In this document: piece by piece, positions 1 through 56,293 of the stretch
Layout of the letters: each line of letters opens with the position of its first letter
Numbering within the stretch: the stretch's first letter is position 1
Source of the DNA: Euryarchaeota archaeon UBA121
GTDB taxonomy: Archaea > Thermoplasmatota > Poseidoniia > Poseidoniales > Thalassarchaeaceae
Reading direction: 5' to 3'
Length of the DNA: 64,000 nucleotides
NCBI GenBank assembly: GCA_002499865.1
Contig: DANL01000059.1
Location: forward strand, 5,460-69,459
The notes under the pieces: generated by a model
Seen by the model: the letters and a program-made list of their open reading frames with translations, nothing else
What the model was told of the DNA's origin: nothing
The model's database searches: none
Program-made: the position numbers and the translations under genes

Positions 1-1681
1 CTTCACCACTGGAGGGGACCTGTCATGGGACTGGAAGGTCAGCTCGATTGAGAGAACCTTCACCACCCCTTGGACAGACGGACTCAAGATATACGTCAAT
101 GGAATCCAGATCGATGCCTCGCAACACGGCGGTTGCATTAACGGTGAATGGTGTGGTGAGGACTCAGGAAGCATGACATGGGCAATGCCAGCCGGTAACA
201 ACACGGTCGACTTCACATTCGACTTCGGAACCGGTAGCGCTGCTGGATCAAGCACTGCTTGGATCGACAACCTGGTTCTGCCAAGCGTAATGACATCATC
301 CAACTATGACCTGGATGATGACAACGATGGTGCGAACGACACAATCGATCTAGACAGCCTGGACCCATGTATCGGACTAGACTCTGACGGAGACGGACTT
401 TCGGACACGCTAGGCACTCTATTCAACGGAACCGCCTGTGATGCCTCGTTGTACACTATTGACGATGACGATGACAACGACGGCTGGACGGACGCAGAAG
501 AGCTAGCTTGCGGAACAGATACCCTAGATGCTACTTCGATGTCGCCTGACAACGACGCAGACGGAATCTGTGATGGCATGGATGACGATGACGACAATGA
601 CGGTGTACTCGATGTAAACGACGCGTTCCCAATGGACTCCAGCGAGTTCTCGGACAACGACGGAGATGGAACAGGTGACAACAACGACACCGACGACGAC
701 AACGATGGAGTGACCGATGGATTGGATGCGTTCCCACTAGACTCCAGCGAGACTTCCGACTATGACGGAGACGGAATCGGCGACAACGCTGACACCGACG
801 ACGACGGTGACGGATGTGACGATGCTAGCGATGCGTTCCCATACAACGTCAACGAGTGCGTGGACACGGATGGAGACGGCCTTGGAGACAATGTCGACCC
901 AGATGACGACGGAGACGGAGTGGCTGACGTTGCTGATCCGTTCCCAATGGACCCAAGCGAGTCCGCGGATGACGATGGCGATGGAATCGGCAACAATGCA
1001 GACACTGACGACGACGGTGACGGAGTAGACGACGCTGACGACGCGTTCCCAATGGACCCAAGCGAGTCCGCGGACCTCGACGGCGACGGACTGGGAGACA
1101 ACTCAGATGCGGATGACGACGGAGACGGCGTCAACGACGGTATCGATGCGTTCCCAACGGACCCGAGCGAGACTGCAGACCTCGACGGCGACGGAATCGG
1201 TGACAATACAGACACCGATGACGACGGCGACGGAGTAGACGACTCTGACGACGCATTCCCATACAACCCAGGAGAGTCAGCTGACTTCGACGGCGACGGA
1301 ATTGGGGACAATGGAGACAACGACGACGACGGCGATGGTTATGCAGACGCCGACGACTGGGCCCCAATGGATGCAAGCGAGTGGCTCGACACCGACGGCG
1401 ACGGAACCGGCGATAATGCTGATGACAACGACGACGGTGACGACTACACAGACGCGTACGAGATATCCTGTGGAACAAACTCACTTGATGCGAACTCGGT
1501 GCCATCCGACTTCGACGGTGACGATCTCTGTGACGCTCTGGACGATGTCGATAACTCAGCCGGAGAAGGAGACAGTGAGACTGAGCTAGGATGGACGAAC
1601 GCAGTCCCAGGATTCCCTGCTCTGCTAGCCGCTATCGCTCTTGTGGGCGCCGCTCTAGTCGGTCGCAGAAAGGAAGACTGA
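1..1681 (+). CDS. Secreted acidic Ca-binding repeat protein (thrombospondin type-3-like DxDxDGxxDxxD repeats) with C-terminal PGF-CTERM archaeosortase sorting signal; 5' end lies upstream of the window
   Basis: Frame 2 is open from nt 2 into the 173..1681 ORF, so the N-terminus is off-window. There are more than 15 copies of D-x-D-x-DG-x-x-D-x-x-D (TSP3 / calcium-binding) units. The C-terminus '[24 protein letters not shown]' is a PGF motif plus a TM helix plus a basic tail, i.e. a classic PGF-CTERM. Confidence 0.85.
590..1450 (+). repeat. Intragenic tandem repeat array (about 99-105 nt units encoding DAFP(M/L)D(S/P)SE-x-DxDGDGxGDNxDxDDDGDGVxD)
   Basis: Near-identical nucleotide units are visible directly, e.g. 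943..1047 vs 1042..1146 ('gacgcgttcccaatggacccaagcgagtccgcgga...'). About 8 units are seen. Confidence 0.8.
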
Positions 1682-1809: not shown

Positions 1810-2196
1810 ATGCCGGGAACTACGAGAGTTGAGATTAGGACATTGAAGGTTGGAAGGTACGTCGCTCTCGAGGAGAACGCCTACAAAATACTGGGTATGA
1901 GCAAATCGAAGCCAGGGAAGCACGGTTCCGCCAAGGCCAGGATCGAGCTGGAAGACATCTTCACAGGTCAGAAGAGAAGCCATGTCGGAACAGTTACCGA
2001 CACCATTCATGTCCCTCTTATAGAGAAAGGCTCGGCCATCGTGACCCACATTCAAGGGAATGAGGTCCATGCCATGGATAACAAGACATACGAGACCCTC
2101 ATCCTCCCCATGGATTCGGAACTAAACCTAGTCTCCGGAGGGGAGATCCAGTGGATGGAAGCTATGGGAAGATACAAGGTGACCAGGGACCACTGA
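1810..2196 (+). CDS. eif5a: Translation initiation factor 5A (aIF-5A), hypusine-containing
   Basis: 'MPGTTRVEIRTLKVGRYV...SKSKPGKHGSAKARIELEDIF' carries the hypusination loop SKxGKHGxAK. The ORF-track start at 1591 is an upstream in-frame extension overlapping the previous gene. An ATG at 1810 gives the canonical ~128 aa protein. Confidence 0.9.
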   Translation: MPGTTRVEIRTLKVGRYVALEENAYKILGMSKSKPGKHGSAKARIELEDIFTGQKRSHVGTVTDTIHVPLIEKGSAIVTHIQGNEVHAMDNKTYETLILPMDSELNLVSGGEIQWMEAMGRYKVTRDH

Positions 2197-39647: not shown

Positions 39648-41378
39648 TCAATTAATCCTGACTAACTGGAAATCAGTCATTTCCCTAAGAATTTTCAGTG
39701 ATTCTGACTCTTCCAGTATATCGAGGCATGAATGAGCCTTAGAATGGTGAAACATTGCCCTGTCTTTGGCATATTTTATGGAATCGTTATCATGCAGTTC
39801 CTGAACGGCTTCAGCGAGTAAATCCGGAGAGCACTCTCCAGAGCCATATGCCTTAGTGAAAGAAGGCAGATGATTCCCTGAGTCCAGAGCGTGAATAGCA
39901 ATCAGAGTTCTTTTTCCTTGCAATATATCTGATCCTGCAGGCTTTCCAAGAGTTTCAGTATCGCCAGTGATATCAATCAAATCGTCCATCAGCTGGAAAC
40001 ATAGTCCCATGTTCAGTCCCCATTCAGCTAGAGATTTTACAACCTCCTCGGATGCTCCGGAAAGCTTTGCGCCGGTCATCGCACATGTCTCGAACATTGC
40101 TGAGGTCTTTCCAGCGATCATCTCTATGTACTCATCTTCAGAGACGACTTCTCTTTTCTCAAACTCCATATCGATCATCTGTCCTTCAGCGACTCTTCTA
40201 ACCATCTCTCCAATAGACTTCACCAAGAACACTAGGTCATCAGAGGCAATATGCTCGGATTCGGCTAAAATCTCAAACGCCACAGCTAGCATTGCATCGC
40301 CTGCATTTATCGCTGTAGCATCGTCATATGCCACATGAACAGCGTCCAAACCCCTTCTGATTGGGTCCTGATCCATGATGTCATCATGTACTAGGGTAAA
40401 ATTATGAATTATCTCTATAGACGCACCTAGGGTATTATGCCCAGGATTCGATCCACCAACGGCATCTCCTACAAGTTTAGGCATTATTGCCCTGAGCCTC
40501 TTCCCGCCTCCAGTGAATAGGTGCTTCATAGCACCGTGTAGCCTCTCTTGCTTAATCTTAGACAAACTAGAAAGAATCTCATTCTCCACGATTTCTCTAT
40601 GTTCCTTTAATGCGCTCATCAATGAAGAACCCGGGGAAAACTGCTCACCTTCTATCGAAACTTCTCCGAATATAACAACCCCATCTCTTTCCTTAATATC
40701 ATCAAAATGTGGATACTGTTCTGCGAGAAACTCTCTCCAAAGTAGTCTAAACCATGGAGCCACAATTTCCCCTTCCCACTCACCAGAACCCTCCATTACC
40801 TGTCTAATTCCTTCAGGCCCAATCCACTTGTGGCCTGAAATCTCATTCTCATTAGGAAAAATCTCCAATGAATCCACTCTTGTAATCAAAACATGGTCTA
40901 CTTCGTTCTCTAACCATTCTTCATTCCATCTGCACTTATACTGAAAAGAACCAAGATGGGAGAATTCCATAGAGTTTGCAATATCTTGATCTATTCCCAA
41001 CTCCTGGGGAAGCTTCCTCTTCGCCGCATTAATACAGCCCTGTATCGGGTCCCCATTCTCTCCTTCAATATCTAACGGATGGCTACAACAACTATTTGCC
41101 CAAATTCCAGGAAATGTGATTTTATCATGAGATCTCTGTTGAATCAACAATCTATTATCGGAATCGAATATTAGGACACTGAATGCCCTATGAAGCAGAC
41201 CTTCTTCATTGTGACAGACTAATTTACTCTCGGATCCAATCATATTATCTTCTAGATCAACTAGAATACAACGCTCAGCCATCATCTCGGCCTGCGAGTT
41301 ATCATACCCAGAGAGAGCGTTGGCACCATCAGCCATGACATTCCGAGAAACCTTCGACATATAACAGAATCCAATCAT
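39648..41378 (-). CDS. Fusion protein: type-1 isopentenyl-diphosphate isomerase (Nudix-fold IDI1) N-terminal domain + geranylgeranyl/polyprenyl diphosphate synthase C-terminal domain
   Basis: The N-terminal part has 'HRAFSVLIFDSDNRLLIQQRSHDKITFPGIWANSCCSHP' (IDI1 signature). The C-terminal part has FARM 'LVHDDIMDQD' and SARM 'FQLMDDLID' polyprenyl synthase motifs. Both lie in one 576-aa reading frame. Confidence 0.85.
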   Translation of the reverse strand: MIGFCYMSKVSRNVMADGANALSGYDNSQAEMMAERCILVDLEDNMIGSESKLVCHNEEGLLHRAFSVLIFDSDNRLLIQQRSHDKITFPGIWANSCCSHPLDIEGENGDPIQGCINAAKRKLPQELGIDQDIANSMEFSHLGSFQYKCRWNEEWLENEVDHVLITRVDSLEIFPNENEISGHKWIGPEGIRQVMEGSGEWEGEIVAPWFRLLWREFLAEQYPHFDDIKERDGVVIFGEVSIEGEQFSPGSSLMSALKEHREIVENEILSSLSKIKQERLHGAMKHLFTGGGKRLRAIMPKLVGDAVGGSNPGHNTLGASIEIIHNFTLVHDDIMDQDPIRRGLDAVHVAYDDATAINAGDAMLAVAFEILAESEHIASDDLVFLVKSIGEMVRRVAEGQMIDMEFEKREVVSEDEYIEMIAGKTSAMFETCAMTGAKLSGASEEVVKSLAEWGLNMGLCFQLMDDLIDITGDTETLGKPAGSDILQGKRTLIAIHALDSGNHLPSFTKAYGSGECSPDLLAEAVQELHDNDSIKYAKDRAMFHHSKAHSCLDILEESESLKILREMTDFQLVRIN

Positions 41379-42169
41379 CCAAGTATTTTGGTACCAATGG
41401 TGGAGCCCTCATCTAGAAGCTGACTGATTCTTTCTGGGTGATTTCCATTAATGAACCAAACTTCATCAACGCCTCTTGATATCTGAGAAGCTCTAGACGC
41501 CTTCAACTCAATTCCCCCCGTAACGTCCTGTTCGGAATTGTGCGAAGTCTCAATATGTTCCTCAGCACTCCAAACCGGCATGAGTCTTGATCCGTCTATA
41601 TTTGGTGGTAAATTCATCATCCCATCTACGTCTCCTAGTAGGAAGATAGAATGTGTCACTGAAGGTATTTCAAGTGATATCCTAGCCATCAAATCATCTC
41701 CTGAAAGTATGCCAAACTCTGCTCCTCCGCTAACCCTGACAACATCTCCAAAGGATACTGGAACGATGTCTTTGGGCGTATTCTCGAAGATATCCAAGTC
41801 CCCAATGAAGCTCCTCCCTGTTTCCTTAGCCCACACTGAAGGTGGGAAAACCGCAAATTCGACTCCAAAACTCTTCAAAGAATCTGTCACATATCCACAT
41901 AGCTCTGCCATGTCCGACCTAACTTTTACTACTGCATCACGTTGTTGCTCTGAAATTTCATCAACAACACCTGCCGCTAAAGACCACTTCTTGGCAAGTA
42001 GGTGTCCAAATGAACCGGCTCCGTGGATTAGTATTACTGAATGTCCATTTGCAATTATCTTCGAAATCTCACTGCATATGGAGTCAATAACTCCTTTTTT
42101 GGCAGTTTTAAATGAGGATTTATCCGTGATAAGCCCCCCTCCCAACTTCATTACTACCTTCGCGGCCAT
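41375..42169 (-). CDS. ipk: Isopentenyl phosphate kinase (amino-acid-kinase fold)
   Basis: 'VVMKLGGGLITDK', 'ILIHGAGSFGH', 'ILSGDDL', 'DVTGGIELK' match the IPK motifs (KLGGS, HGGGSFGH, ISGDD, DVTGGM). Confidence 0.8.
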   Translation of the reverse strand: MAAKVVMKLGGGLITDKSSFKTAKKGVIDSICSEISKIIANGHSVILIHGAGSFGHLLAKKWSLAAGVVDEISEQQRDAVVKVRSDMAELCGYVTDSLKSFGVEFAVFPPSVWAKETGRSFIGDLDIFENTPKDIVPVSFGDVVRVSGGAEFGILSGDDLMARISLEIPSVTHSIFLLGDVDGMMNLPPNIDGSRLMPVWSAEEHIETSHNSEQDVTGGIELKASRASQISRGVDEVWFINGNHPERISQLLDEGSTIGTKILG

Positions 42170-50623: not shown

Positions 50624-51838
50624 ATGCCACTCGACGACGACGCAGTTTCTAATTCAGACTGGAGAGGTAGGCTTTCAACTATGGATATTCCTTTGGCAGT
50701 ATCTACAGATAATGTAACTCTAGATTGCCTCGAGACGCTCATCTATGAAGGTCGACTAACATTCGAACAAGGTGTGAAACTGATGATTAATCCAAGTCTA
50801 AACTCTGTCACCTCATTGGCTGATATGGTGAAGAAAGCTAGGTTTCATGATTACGTATTTTTCAATGATAATCTGCATGTAAACTCCACAAATGTATGTG
50901 TTTTGGCTTGTAGGTTTTGTGCTTTCAGAAAGGGTCCAAGACACCCAGATGCCTATTCATTGGACGTCGATCAGTATCTCGAAAGAGTCAGGCCCTATTC
51001 ATCTAGAATCGACGAAGTACATACTGTTGGTGGATTACACCCAACATGGACTGTTGCTGAGTATTGTGAATTGTTCTCAAATCTAAAAGATGAATTTCCA
51101 CACATTCACATTAAGGCACTAACTGCAGTCGAGATTAAGCATCTATCGATCAGGTCATCTCTTTCTTTCTCAGAGACTCTATCTAGGCTTTCTGAGGCAG
51201 GTCTTAATTCACTTCCTGGAGGTGGTGCAGAGATTCTAGTAGACAGTGTCAGGGACCGTATCTGTATGGGCAAGGAATCTTCAGATGAGTATCTAGATAT
51301 TCATGGGGTGGCTCATTCACTGGGCATTCCGACTAACTGTACAATGTTGTTTGGTACCGTTGAATCTGTGGAAGATCGGATTAACCATTTGTTGAGACTT
51401 AGAGAGCAACAAGATGCAACATCCGGGTTTCAGTGTTTTGTCCCTTATCCATTCTTACCTGACAAGACGAGACTGCCTGAAGCACAGCTCGCTACAGGGC
51501 AAGAGATAATACGCATGATTTCTGTCTCTAGACTAATGCTAGACAATATACCTCATATCAAGGCATATAGGATGAATATTGGAGACAAACTCGCCTCCTA
51601 TGCAATTAACTGTGGCGCTGACGATGTTGACGGAACCGTTGGCCATGAAGAAATAATGCATGAGGCTGGCAGTAAGACAAGCCTCACCACCAGCTCCGAA
51701 CAACTGGCCAGAATGGTAATTTCATCAGGCGCTACACCAGTAAAGAGAAACTCCTCTTACTCACAATTTGAAATAATCAGTCTACCAGAAGAAAACTCAT
51801 CCCAGGTCCTCCCCGTCATCACAGTCGAGGTTCCCTAA
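50624..51838 (+). CDS. Radical-SAM menaquinone (futalosine pathway) enzyme, MqnE/MqnC family
   Basis: 'NSTNVCVLACRFCAF' CxxxCxxC cluster motif of the MqnC/MqnE/CofGH group. It lies directly upstream of an MqnA-like gene. Confidence 0.65.
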   Translation: MPLDDDAVSNSDWRGRLSTMDIPLAVSTDNVTLDCLETLIYEGRLTFEQGVKLMINPSLNSVTSLADMVKKARFHDYVFFNDNLHVNSTNVCVLACRFCAFRKGPRHPDAYSLDVDQYLERVRPYSSRIDEVHTVGGLHPTWTVAEYCELFSNLKDEFPHIHIKALTAVEIKHLSIRSSLSFSETLSRLSEAGLNSLPGGGAEILVDSVRDRICMGKESSDEYLDIHGVAHSLGIPTNCTMLFGTVESVEDRINHLLRLREQQDATSGFQCFVPYPFLPDKTRLPEAQLATGQEIIRMISVSRLMLDNIPHIKAYRMNIGDKLASYAINCGADDVDGTVGHEEIMHEAGSKTSLTTSSEQLARMVISSGATPVKRNSSYSQFEIISLPEENSSQVLPVITVEVP

Positions 51839-52642
51839 ATGAGTTGGAAGGACGTAATTGGCAGGGTATCTTTCTCTAACTGTGACCCTATCTTCGACGG
51901 CATAAGTCCTGAGTGGAAAATCCTCTCAGCACCACCAGCATGGTTAACTGGTCATGTGATGAGAAGGGACTGTATTACTGCCCCCATTCCATCCGCAGAT
52001 TATGCATCCAACAGTGAAAAACTGATGCTACTTCCAGATATTGGTATTGTTAGTAACGGTGAAGTTGGCTCTGTACTACTATTCGGCAACCGTCCTATAG
52101 AAAATATGAGGGATATTGCACTACCAACTGACTCATCGACTTCCAAGGTATTACTAAGTTGGATAATAAAGAATCGTGGTTTAGATCCGAAATTCATTGA
52201 GACCGGACCGAACATAAATTCCATGTTGGAAAAATGTGATGGGGCTCTTCTTATAGGAGATAGAGCGATTTTAGCTTCAATTTCCCATCCAGAACTAGTG
52301 AAAATGGATTTAGGAGCTGAATGGACCAGAATCACAGGGCTACCAATGGTCTTTGGAGTATTCGTAGCTAGAAGGGACTCCCCAGAGGGAATTTTGAGAG
52401 ATGCACACTCTGAAATGATCAAACAAGTCAAACTCTTTGAAAGTGATCAAAAATGGAGATCTTCTGTAATATCCCGTACATCCAAGAAACTCGGATTTCC
52501 TGAAGAAAGGGTTGAAGAATATTTTAGGGAGGAGGTTAGGAATAGAATGTCTCAAGATGATATCGACGGCCTCTTATTATTTCTAAAAGAGGCATGTGGG
52601 ATGCTTGAGCCACCAGTCTGGCTTGAACTTCATTCTGAGTAA
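51839..52642 (+). CDS. mqnA: MqnA/MqnD-family protein (chorismate dehydratase MqnA-like)
   Basis: 267 aa periplasmic-binding-fold-like sequence. 'EKCDGALLIGDRAIL' resembles the MqnA 'ALLIGD.AL' segment. Confidence 0.5.
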   Translation: MSWKDVIGRVSFSNCDPIFDGISPEWKILSAPPAWLTGHVMRRDCITAPIPSADYASNSEKLMLLPDIGIVSNGEVGSVLLFGNRPIENMRDIALPTDSSTSKVLLSWIIKNRGLDPKFIETGPNINSMLEKCDGALLIGDRAILASISHPELVKMDLGAEWTRITGLPMVFGVFVARRDSPEGILRDAHSEMIKQVKLFESDQKWRSSVISRTSKKLGFPEERVEEYFREEVRNRMSQDDIDGLLLFLKEACGMLEPPVWLELHSE

Positions 52643-53109
52643 TTCAGTTTCCTGCTGGAAACCCATTCTAGTAGGTCTAGTGCTACTTCGCATGACTCTG
52701 CAACAACGATATCTTTGTCCTCCTTGAATCTCTCTAGGACGCCGAGAGCCGTTCTATCGCCTATAGCTCCTAGAGCCTCTGCCGCTTCGTGTCTGACCAT
52801 GACATCCTCTTCATAATCCTCAAGTCTTTCAATCAAGTAAGGTACCGCCGTTGAATCCTGCATTTGACCCATTACATATGCTATTTCATGCTTCAAAAGT
52901 GCTGATGTCGATGAAAAGGCAGCCGCCAGAGCTTCCACTGAATCATTACCGCCAATATTTCTGAGTGCGAATAAGGCCCTCATTCTCTGAAACATCTTCT
53001 CTTCTTCATCGCATAAAGTTGCCCTGAGTCTAGAGACGTCATTGACAGTGCTTGGTGGAGCAGGATCCACAGAATCAAACTCACTGACCTCAGGCCTCTT
53101 CTCATCCAT
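52630..53109 (-). CDS. Half-size deoxyhypusine hydroxylase (DOHH)-like HEAT-repeat protein with two His-Glu metal-binding motifs
   Basis: 159 aa. 'LLKHEIAYVMGQMQD' and 'VMVRHEAAEALGAIGD' match the paired HE motifs of eukaryotic DOHH (...RHEVAYVLGQ... / ...MVRHE(A/C)AEALGAI...). 'IVVAESCEVALDLLEW' matches the DOHH repeat terminus. It covers only one of the two symmetric DOHH halves. Confidence 0.6.
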   Translation of the reverse strand: MDEKRPEVSEFDSVDPAPPSTVNDVSRLRATLCDEEEKMFQRMRALFALRNIGGNDSVEALAAAFSSTSALLKHEIAYVMGQMQDSTAVPYLIERLEDYEEDVMVRHEAAEALGAIGDRTALGVLERFKEDKDIVVAESCEVALDLLEWVSSRKLNYSE

Positions 53110-53111
53110 GT

Positions 53112-54164
53112 TTATTCACCCGAACCAACGAAAACAATTGAATCTACGTCTAAATCAGTTCTGACCATGCCTATTTCTTGACCCTTTCGAAGGAATAATC
53201 GAATAGCTTCCCTCCCGTCATCTCCATAGTCAAGAGTTCTTTTATTCACATACATGCCGACAAATTCCTCGTTTGTTTCATCATCTATTCCTCTTCCCCA
53301 TTCCTTAGCAAATTTTAATGCATCCTCAGGGTTTGAGAGTGAATGCTCAATGCTATTTCTTACATCATCAGTAATTTTCCCACACATTTCTAATCCTAGA
53401 TCTTTCCTTACCACATTACCTCCCAAAGGTAGAGGCAGACCTGTTTCTTCATTCCACCATATTCCCAAGTCTAGAACTAGATTAACCCCCTCGTCCTTCC
53501 AGGTTAGTTGTCCTTCGTGAATAATGACCCCCACATCATACTCCCCACGCTTAACCGATGGCATAATCTCATCAAATGGTACCACCCTGTAGTCAACATC
53601 TCCCAGAGCCAACCTTAGTGATAGATACGCGCTAGTCCCAACTCCGGGAATTGCGAAAACCTTGCTTTTTGCTTCTTCTATGGTCATTTCTTCTCTCGAA
53701 ATTATCATCGGCCCATATCCCTCTCCCATCGAAGCGCCGCAGTTCATCAAATGGTACTTATCAGAAATATCGGGGAATGAGTGTATGCTAACTGCGGAAA
53801 CTTCGTAATCGCCTTTCATTGCATGCTGGTTCAAAGTCTCAATATCCAATAGGACATGTTCGTATCTTCTATTTCCAGTGTCTATTACGCCAGTTGTCAT
53901 TGCATGGAACATGAATGCGTCATCCGGGTCTGGTGAGTGTCCAACTCTGTACACAGTCTCATCGCTCATGTGCATACGCGTGCAAGACGATTCAAAACTC
54001 CTCCGTGTCATAACTCTCTGTAGTAAGAGTGAATAATCGCTACTATGACGAGTAGACATGCCGGACCCCGACAAGCTATCCACGGCCACAGGCCAGCTTG
54101 GTCCTATCTGCTTCGTCACAGGAAAGCCGATTACATTCTCAGAAGCTATAGTTGTTGATGACAA
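53112..54164 (-). CDS. mqnD: 1,4-dihydroxy-6-naphthoate synthase MqnD (futalosine pathway); likely true start at internal Met (53975)
   Basis: 'VYRVGHSPDPDDAFMFHAMTTGVIDT' parallels the MqnD N-terminus (LRLGxSPCPNDTFIFYAL..G.ID). The ~60 aa upstream of the internal Met look non-conserved. Confidence 0.6.
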   Translation of the reverse strand: MSSTTIASENVIGFPVTKQIGPSWPVAVDSLSGSGMSTRHSSDYSLLLQRVMTRRSFESSCTRMHMSDETVYRVGHSPDPDDAFMFHAMTTGVIDTGNRRYEHVLLDIETLNQHAMKGDYEVSAVSIHSFPDISDKYHLMNCGASMGEGYGPMIISREEMTIEEAKSKVFAIPGVGTSAYLSLRLALGDVDYRVVPFDEIMPSVKRGEYDVGVIIHEGQLTWKDEGVNLVLDLGIWWNEETGLPLPLGGNVVRKDLGLEMCGKITDDVRNSIEHSLSNPEDALKFAKEWGRGIDDETNEEFVGMYVNKRTLDYGDDGREAIRLFLRKGQEIGMVRTDLDVDSIVFVGSGE

Positions 54165-55495: not shown

Positions 55496-56293
55496 ATGTT
55501 GAATAGTGTAGAGTCCCGGAAATCAACTGAGACGAGTATGCCGGACGATGAAGAATCTTTGGTAGGGCCTAATGGAATGCCCTTGCCACCGCCCCCTCCG
55601 GGGCTTAATTTACCCCCTCCTCCGCCTATCCCTGTCCCTCTACCACCACCCGTCGAGGCAAATGAAAACCCTCAATCTGAAAAAGACCTTGAAGATATCG
55701 AAATTCCTTCTGAAGTAGAGTCAAAGAATGACTTTCAAAGCCACTGGGAGAAGAGGAAATCTGACAGTGACTCCCCGGCAATAGAGAGTAGGGATAGCAT
55801 GTATGGACACATAGATAGAATTTCATCCGGCCAGGTGGGCTCCCTGATGGATAGGTTCTCCGATCGATTTGGCTCAGAGCTGGATAGGGAGATCATTGTA
55901 CTCAGAAAAAAGCAACAGCAAGATCTCCTCGCGATTAAGCCAACTGTAGAACTAATTTCCTCGCCTGATGATGATTACGAAGAAGAATCAGAAGATCAGA
56001 GTAATGATTCTGAAGAGGACTCCGGAGGTTTGTTCCCGCAGTTCTTCGAAATCGTGAATAATCTGCTTGGCGATATGGATGAGGATTTCATTGATTCCTT
56101 TGTCTCCTCAGATGACTTCCCCCTCTTCCAGGAAGTGGGGGAGGGTCCAAGTGATTGCGATGATGAAACTAAGGCAGAATTTTTCTCTATGATAAATAGA
56201 GTACTTGGGGAGCTTCCAGAGGAAAAGATTGGAGACTTTGTCGCTTCACCAGGTTTTGCAATTTATCAAGAGATGGGCGAGATTTATTCATAA
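55496..56293 (+). CDS. Hypothetical acidic, proline-rich protein
   Basis: 'PLPPPPPGLNLPPPPPIPVPLPPP' followed by an acidic low-complexity and helical C-terminus with duplicated 'ExxxxFxxxxNxxLG(D/E)xxE(D/E)xIxxFVxSxxF' units. Confidence 0.5.
   Translation: MLNSVESRKSTETSMPDDEESLVGPNGMPLPPPPPGLNLPPPPPIPVPLPPPVEANENPQSEKDLEDIEIPSEVESKNDFQSHWEKRKSDSDSPAIESRDSMYGHIDRISSGQVGSLMDRFSDRFGSELDREIIVLRKKQQQDLLAIKPTVELISSPDDDYEEESEDQSNDSEEDSGGLFPQFFEIVNNLLGDMDEDFIDSFVSSDDFPLFQEVGEGPSDCDDETKAEFFSMINRVLGELPEEKIGDFVASPGFAIYQEMGEIYS

Follow-up and report, generated by a model that had tools for sequence, protein, structure and literature searches.

Here, we identify a half-size relative of deoxyhypusine hydroxylase (DOHH) in a Marine Group II (MGII) archaeon of the Poseidoniales, encoded at 52630..53109 on the minus strand of a 64,000-nt stretch of contig DANL01000059.1 (assembly GCA_002499865.1) that we refer to as the window. 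The protein of 159 amino acids (aa), which begins at an ATG codon and comprises an N-terminal arm followed by four HEAT-like helical hairpins, is specifically homologous to DOHH, retains its conserved ligands, evolves under purifying selection, and co-occurs with deoxyhypusine synthase (DHS) and aIF5A. We propose that this half-DOHH is probably a single-lobe DOHH orthologue that acts as a homodimeric di-iron enzyme on deoxyhypusinated aIF5A; the homodimer, the iron, the substrate and the product are what we infer from these observations. A preliminary description of the window, made from the sequence alone, had put the gene forward as a candidate homodimeric archaeal DOHH, and that candidacy is sustained by the protein's similarity to both halves of the eukaryotic enzyme, its ligands, the presence of DHS and aIF5A, and the compatibility of a tandem model with the DOHH fold.

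Similarity to DOHH is both high and specific. In a phmmer search of all PDB sequences, the best match of the half-DOHH is human DOHH (4d4z), with an E-value of 5.4e-75. The human protein is matched twice, with query residues 21-151 aligning to residues 8-138 (i-E 1e-33) and query residues 6-153 aligning to residues 144-291 (i-E 1e-37), and both His-Glu (HE) motifs fall in register in each alignment. Next after DOHH in the PDB come synthetic consensus alphaRep proteins, whose scores are sums over many repeats, and natural non-DOHH HEAT proteins such as CpcE and MTH187 score 2e-4 or worse. The initial impression that the protein resembles DOHH and carries exactly one half of it is therefore well founded: both human halves are matched at ~46% identity, far above generic HEAT proteins. 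Pfam places the protein in HEAT_PBS (PF03130; 57.1 bits, cut-off 20.9) and HEAT_2 (PF13646; 54.6 bits, cut-off 27.7), a membership that denotes a structural repeat class and carries no functional assignment. Neither Pfam nor NCBIfam scans of the half-DOHH return a DOHH-specific family, and its scores against the NCBIfam equivalogs NblB (38.7 vs 300), CpcE (24.6 vs 330) and CpeY (15.7 vs 600) all lie below cut-off. Profile searches and alignment to each DOHH half, both recommended in the preliminary description, thus find only generic HEAT families in Pfam, yet conserved metal ligands. Among the outcomes which that description had named as speaking against a DOHH are a generic HEAT protein devoid of the ligands and an organism devoid of DHS, and we find neither. 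Finally, in an HMMER search of 1.84 billion representative sequences, giant multi-repeat HEAT proteins aside, the nearest of the matches listed beyond the query's own cluster are proteins of ~300 aa that match twice, and those with names are eukaryotic DOHHs of fungal, crustacean, nematode and rhizarian origin. The matches listed are those above 175 bits, a level below which single-lobe relatives at ~50% identity would fall.

Eukaryotic DOHH consists of two symmetrical four-repeat domains with two HE motifs each (PMC3306375, PMC9117371). The archaeal half shares with the eukaryotic enzymes (human 4d4z; yeast Lia1) a HEAT-hairpin lobe bearing two HE motifs at the same 33-residue spacing, the residues S69, H74, E75, H107, E108 and C140, and a 'SVDPAPP' sequence ahead of the lobe together with a similar C-terminal tail. 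The first motif (H74-E75, in 'KHEIAYVMGQ'; codons 52885..52890, minus strand) is equivalent to human H56-E57 and H207-E208, and the second (H107-E108, in 'VMVRHEAAEALGAIG'; codons 52786..52791, minus strand) to human H89-E90 and H240-E241. The arm motif, S13-VDPAPP-19 (53053..53073, minus strand), is identical to the conserved linker before the C-terminal half of eukaryotic DOHH. The 159-aa open reading frame with both HE strings, plus the 'ESCEVALDLLEW' singled out in the preliminary description, is present on the minus strand. In human DOHH the di-iron centre is anchored by H56, H89, E90, H207, H240 and E241, and the deoxyhypusine side chain is bound by E57, E90, E208 and E241 and by a conserved glycine (G214 and its N-half equivalent) (PMC3306375, PMC9117371). 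In our alignment, every one of these iron ligands and substrate binders maps to H74, E75, G81, H107 or E108 of the archaeal protein. One of the two papers prints the N-half glycine as 'G65' (PMC9117371); the +7 spacing from the histidine (compare H207/G214) and the alignment give G63, and 'G65' is probably a typographical slip.

These residues are conserved to different degrees outside the DOHH family. H74, E75, H107 and E108 do not vary among 82 MGII orthologues, and 24 columns, including H74, E75, G81, Q82, R106, H107, E108, E111 and C140, are invariant across archaeal, N-half and C-half sequences. Of the 37 positions at which both eukaryotic halves are conserved and carry the same residue, 35 have that residue in the archaeal proteins too. 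Histidine occupies positions 74 and 107 in all 105 archaeal, N-half and C-half sequences versus none of 12 generic HEAT-PBS segments. G81, R42, R106 and D131 also occur in generic HEAT-PBS repeats (the glycine in 12 of 12) and are therefore not diagnostic, so that among the substrate binders only the glutamates are informative. S69 and C140 are further invariant residues specific to DOHH.

The named close homologues of the half-DOHH belong to MGII archaea (Poseidoniales, Thalassarchaeaceae). Scanning one genome per species in 185,579 species with DOHH-specific peptide patterns gave 399 confirmed stretches, the best 80 of which are all from MGII, at 71-95% identity, and no relative was found in viral contigs. 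Across 82 orthologues, 67 columns are invariant, S13-P18 of the arm included, the median dN/dS of 0.064 indicates strong purifying selection, and the GC content of the gene equals that of the window; we therefore consider it a functional, long-resident gene. In the Tully pangenome of 250 MGII genomes, the KEGG label 'DOHH' is carried by one gene cluster of the 'MGII Core' sheet, core being defined there as presence in 70% or more of MGIIa as well as of MGIIb, and the cluster occurs in 119 of 158 and 72 of 92 genomes of the two clades. The word hypusine appears nowhere in the text of that paper. The Damashek annotation of an MGIIb metagenome-assembled genome (MAG), SIMO Bin 19-2, contains the same 480-nt gene (K06072) directly 3' of mqnD, and a divergent orthologue (P0241), 61% identical to the query, occupies the same place behind mqnD.

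Two observations concern the annotation and copy number of the gene. In SIMO Bin 19-2, eggNOG-mapper grouped it (41114-41594) with the Nitrosopumilus HEAT protein Nmar_1251 at 65 bits (PMC9723583, supplementary file 4), and its neighbours were seeded instead by genes of the reference MG2 genome; that early reference assembly may lack the half-DOHH gene or leave it uncalled. The MAG UBA105 has two contigs (L030 and L035; DALV01000106 and DALV01000070), each with a half-DOHH copy at 79% identity to the query, and mqnD lies directly upstream in L035, where there is enough upstream sequence. Strain heterogeneity within the bin seems a likelier source of these two copies than paralogy.

The presumed substrate is encoded in the window itself. 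As the preliminary description stated, an aIF5A gene lies at 1810..2196 on the plus strand: the best PDB match of its product is M. jannaschii aIF5A (1eif, 1e-26), and the SKPGKHGSAKAR loop is present and aligned. The modified lysine would be K37 within SKPGKHGSAKAR (codon 1918..1920). DOHH additionally requires O2. Papers on MGII give their habitat as oxygenated surface water. The other expected partner, DHS, is not found in the window by a motif scan, and tblastn with human DHS as the probe does not find it within 10 kb of the gene in 84 related loci. It is encoded in 153 of 158 and 91 of 92 genomes of the two MGII clades in the Tully pangenome (97-99%), and elsewhere in the same MAG as the half-DOHH gene in SIMO Bin 19-2.

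How would a half-size protein form a DOHH? The eukaryotic one-chain, eight-repeat architecture is not what the half-DOHH has: its 159 aa make four hairpins, with eight helices in the model, as compared with ~300 aa and two lobes in eukaryotes. Since a single polypeptide provides four hairpins and the upstream gene encodes MqnD, the eight-repeat form could be reached only through dimerisation. None of 85 loci contains a second half-DOHH copy, and this absence, together with the single DOHH-labelled cluster in the pangenome, makes a homodimer the simplest assumption. The eukaryotic enzyme is an asymmetric pseudo-dimer, whereas the archaeal half would require a symmetric homodimer, in which the SVDPAPP arm is present on both subunits instead of once, as a linker. 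We modelled a head-to-tail tandem of two copies, aligned with 90 eukaryotic DOHHs, and obtained a pLDDT of 92.4 and a pTM of 0.89. This model superimposes on 4d4z with a TM of 0.95 and 1.4 Å over ~290 columns, and every other HEAT protein gives a TM<0.5; a tandem of two copies is thus compatible with the DOHH fold. The first 25 residues of the archaeal protein correspond in the alignment to the linker between the eukaryotic lobes, SVDPAPP being the consensus of the linker before the C-half. In the model the arm is ordered (pLDDT 77-96) only where it takes the place of the linker, in the second copy, and is disordered in the first.

We propose a mechanism in which two identical subunits would pair head to head, in the manner of the eukaryotic N and C lobes. 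Each subunit would give two histidines and one or two glutamates to one iron of a shared di-iron centre, and the SVDPAPP arm of each would pack like the eukaryotic inter-lobe linker. The arm motif is invariant even though a one-lobe protein needs no linker, which suggests that it has a structural role of its own, and the arm probably packs on the partner subunit. The di-iron centre would then activate O2, a reaction that in the human enzyme passes through a peroxo-diiron(III) intermediate, and aerobic planktonic MGII archaea would carry true hypusine.

Other explanations of the gene must be weighed against this proposal. NCBI names close homologues 'HEAT repeat domain-containing protein' or 'PBS lyase', and with HEAT_PBS and HEAT_2 as the only Pfam families, the half-DOHH could be taken for an ordinary, non-catalytic HEAT/PBS-lyase-like scaffold protein. 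It does share the repeat type PF03130/PF13646 with the PBS-lyase HEAT-like proteins (CpcE/CpcF, NblB, E. coli YibA, MTH187) and with alphaRep, but those proteins lack HE motifs and form continuous solenoids, whereas the half-DOHH tandem model has two facing lobes. Moreover, the match to DOHH at 5e-75 stands against 2e-4 or worse for real PBS-lyase/HEAT proteins, the NCBIfam NblB and CpcE matches are far under their cut-offs, the histidines of both HE motifs are invariant in the half-DOHH and missing from generic HEAT segments, and the host is a non-photosynthetic archaeon that is not known to have phycobilisomes. A scaffold function therefore seems to us highly improbable. The gene's surroundings suggest a different role, already raised in the preliminary description: a di-iron oxygenase recruited to menaquinone/quinone metabolism, co-transcribed with mqnD, and hydroxylating a naphthoquinone intermediate or related small molecule in place of aIF5A. 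mqnD lies directly upstream on the same strand in 80 of the 81 loci that extend far enough, the spacers ranging from -14 to +4 nt, so that co-transcription of the half-DOHH with mqnD is likely; mqnA and an mqnE/C-type gene adjoin as well, and the adjacency to mqnD is kept in the 61%-identical orthologue despite a WD40 gene inserted downstream. However, PriS, mqnA, mqnE/C and transketolase are equally syntenic in related genomes, and because the whole neighbourhood is conserved in this way, the position next to mqnD is not specific evidence. One locus (L067) retains the half-DOHH with ~350 nt of upstream sequence of its own although mqnD and mqnE/C are missing from it, and ~46% identity to eukaryotic DOHH with every substrate-binding glutamate kept argues for the same substrate. 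The futalosine pathway (MqnA-E, prenylation, decarboxylation, methylation) is not known to include an O2-dependent hydroxylation step. The neighbourhood-wide synteny and the persistence of the gene where mqnD is absent lead us to set the quinone suggestion aside as quite unlikely.

A further possibility is that the protein is a DOHH-derived di-iron protein that pairs with a second half-size partner in a heterodimer, or that acts on a substrate other than aIF5A. The eukaryotic enzyme is itself asymmetric, its N and C halves being 38-39% identical, and a paralogue at ~45-50% identity would be invisible among the best 80 of 399 stretches and the representatives above 175 bits. Against a heterodimer, the DOHH label falls on only one gene cluster in the 250 MGII genomes, the portion examined of the SIMO Bin 19-2 table contains only one K06072 gene, the 85 loci hold no second copy, and the archaeal core is equally near both halves, as expected of one sequence that fills both roles. 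We regard such a partner or such a substrate as unlikely. Several points nevertheless weigh against a homodimeric DOHH. A divergent, N-half-like partner could conceivably be encoded elsewhere in the genome. The tandem model was guided by the eukaryotic DOHH alignment and is in effect a homology model, and an alignment-free tandem (pTM 0.48; TM 0.57 and 8.3 Å to 4d4z) does not reproduce the two-lobe arrangement; given that this arrangement enters the model through the alignment and is missed without it, the modelling amounts to compatibility rather than proof. The half-DOHH gene has mqnD as its close neighbour rather than DHS or aIF5A, and its transcripts in SIMO Bin 19-2 are low, at 0.145 CPM and non-zero in one of seven samples, DHS being at 0.18 and 0.40 CPM in the same MAG. 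Finally, early amino-acid analyses cited in PMC5178350 showed deoxyhypusine for the most part in Euryarchaeota, among them the cultured relatives, the Thermoplasmatales. If these data hold, MGII would be an exception.

The relationship of the archaeal protein to the two eukaryotic halves bears on where DOHH came from. Of 98 eukaryotic DOHHs, 88 give the archaeal protein a higher score with their C-half than with their N-half, mainly because of the arm and the C-terminal tail. Over the core (residues 30-150), its identity to N-halves is 45% and that to C-halves 46%, the two kinds of half being 38-39% identical to each other, 43% within N-halves and 49% within C-halves. From these identities we derived three-point distances, which locate the archaeal clade at the N/C node or close to it, with a short branch. 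Only three positions distinguish N- from C-halves at a 60% threshold, two of them N-like and one C-like in the archaeal protein, too few to decide the matter, and the local signatures are likewise mixed: 'LLKHE' is N-half-like and 'ESCEVALD' C-half-like. A neighbour-joining tree of N-halves, C-halves, archaeal proteins and an outgroup (114 columns) places the archaeal clade outside N+C, with unstable bootstrap. Four-point quartets prefer the grouping (archaeal, outgroup / N, C) at 39-45% vs 26-34% for each alternative, and this grouping wins 65-76% of bootstraps; the preference could be due to long-branch effects. The preliminary description had likened the protein to the pre-duplication ancestor of eukaryotic DOHH. 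The sequences are compatible with a pre-duplication position of the archaeal clade and weakly favour it; an early offshoot of either DOHH half is a possible alternative placement.

We also considered a recent transfer of a truncated C-half from a crown eukaryote, and regard it as an unlikely origin: the core resembles N-halves (45%) and C-halves (46%) to the same extent, no single group of eukaryotes is conspicuously close, the ~300-aa matches listed that align in two stretches being ~40-52% identical, and the GC content of the half-DOHH does not deviate. A fuller evolutionary scenario, which we offer tentatively and consider rather doubtful as a whole, is that the MGII protein is a living pre-duplication, homodimeric DOHH, that eukaryotic DOHH arose from such a protein by tandem duplication and fusion, and that the arm of the second copy became the linker. 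MGII would on this scenario contain true hypusine made by a symmetric di-iron enzyme, the first archaeal DOHH.

The locus differs from that of eukaryotic DOHH genes both in its archaeal host and in its packing among futalosine-pathway genes. mqnD, encoding 1,4-dihydroxy-6-naphthoate synthase, occupies 53112..53969 on the minus strand (Pfam VitK2_biosynth, 4.6e-68), and its product matches Thermus TTHA1568 (3a3u, 5e-50) and AF1704 (3e-67) in the PDB. Its TAA stop ends at 53112, leaving a 2-nt spacer, 'AC', before the half-DOHH ATG at 53109. The reading frame as listed extends to a TTG at 54164 and gives 350 aa; because its alignment to TTHA1568 begins at residue 71 and MqnD of relatives has 285 aa, the true start is probably the internal methionine at 53969 (285 aa). 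The arrangement given in the preliminary description, with mqnD on the same strand at a distance of 2 nt, is thus borne out, and the 350-aa frame listed for it is probably over-extended. On the opposite side lies convergent mqnA, encoding chorismate dehydratase (51839..52642, plus strand; Pfam VitK2_biosynth; PDB 7ahr, 2e-22). The 3' ends of mqnA and the half-DOHH gene overlap by 13 nt (52630..52642), which leaves no room for an intergenic terminator. Next to mqnA is a gene for a radical SAM enzyme of the MqnE/MqnC type, also of the futalosine pathway (50624..51838, plus strand), whose NCBIfam matches to MqnE (2.4e-116) and MqnC (4.9e-98) are both under the equivalog cut-offs.

Related loci depart from this order in two ways. 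In L067 (1967-5674) the order is PriS, ~350 nt, half-DOHH, mqnA (47% identity) and transketolase, which may represent a rearranged or partly lost futalosine cluster. In divergent Thalassarchaeaceae with P0241 (L002:10542-12902 and L004:3135-5495), a gene for a 786-aa WD40 beta-propeller protein lies between half-DOHH and mqnA. Elsewhere in the window, 173..1681 (plus strand) encodes a 502-aa, extremely acidic protein with repeated D-x-D-x-D-G-type units and a C-terminus that, judged by eye from the translation, resembles the PGF-CTERM archaeal sorting signal. At 55496..56293 (plus strand) lies a gene for a 265-aa protein that is rich in proline near its N-terminus ('PLPPPPPGLNLPPPPPIPVPLPPP') and acidic over the rest of its length; poly-proline tracts of this kind require IF5A for their translation.

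Between 2012 and 2021, reviews and primary papers have described DOHH as absent from archaea or not found there. Full-text searches of the literature returned no paper linking DOHH or deoxyhypusine with MGII or Asgard archaea and no discussion of 'deoxyhypusine monooxygenase' in an archaeal context, and nothing on DOHH appears in the supplements to Rinke 2018 or to the archaeal annotation paper covering 2,978 genomes. At the same time, JGI names close homologues 'deoxyhypusine monooxygenase', and the KEGG KOALA label DOHH stands in two supplementary tables. The statement that no archaeal hydroxylase has been assigned accordingly agrees with the reviews and papers of those years, but not with the KEGG and JGI pipelines, which already label the gene DOHH. 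The label is not new; what is new is the recognition of the protein as a half-size, probably homodimeric archaeal DOHH, and its evolutionary meaning.

A bifunctional deoxyhypusine synthase/hydroxylase has been proposed for Trichomonas vaginalis and considered for Sulfolobus (PMC6105217). Like our proposal, this idea addresses how hypusine could form where no DOHH is known; it places the hydroxylase in DHS itself, whereas MGII have a separate DOHH-type gene. Crenarchaea lack DOHH homologues according to the literature, and how members such as Sulfolobus come by hypusine would not be accounted for by the half-DOHH.

Among their core genes, the most abundant planktonic archaea of the surface ocean carry a clear homologue of DOHH. 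A synthetic copy of the gene would allow a direct test, without the need for an MGII culture, and metaproteomic data would allow another. If active, the protein would be the first archaeal DOHH, and true hypusine would be predicted in a euryarchaeal lineage where deoxyhypusine has been expected. An active enzyme would also provide a natural, symmetric, minimal HEAT-repeat di-iron oxygenase of 159 aa for mechanistic and structural work, and duplication and fusion of such a homodimer would offer a concrete model for the origin of eukaryotic DOHH.

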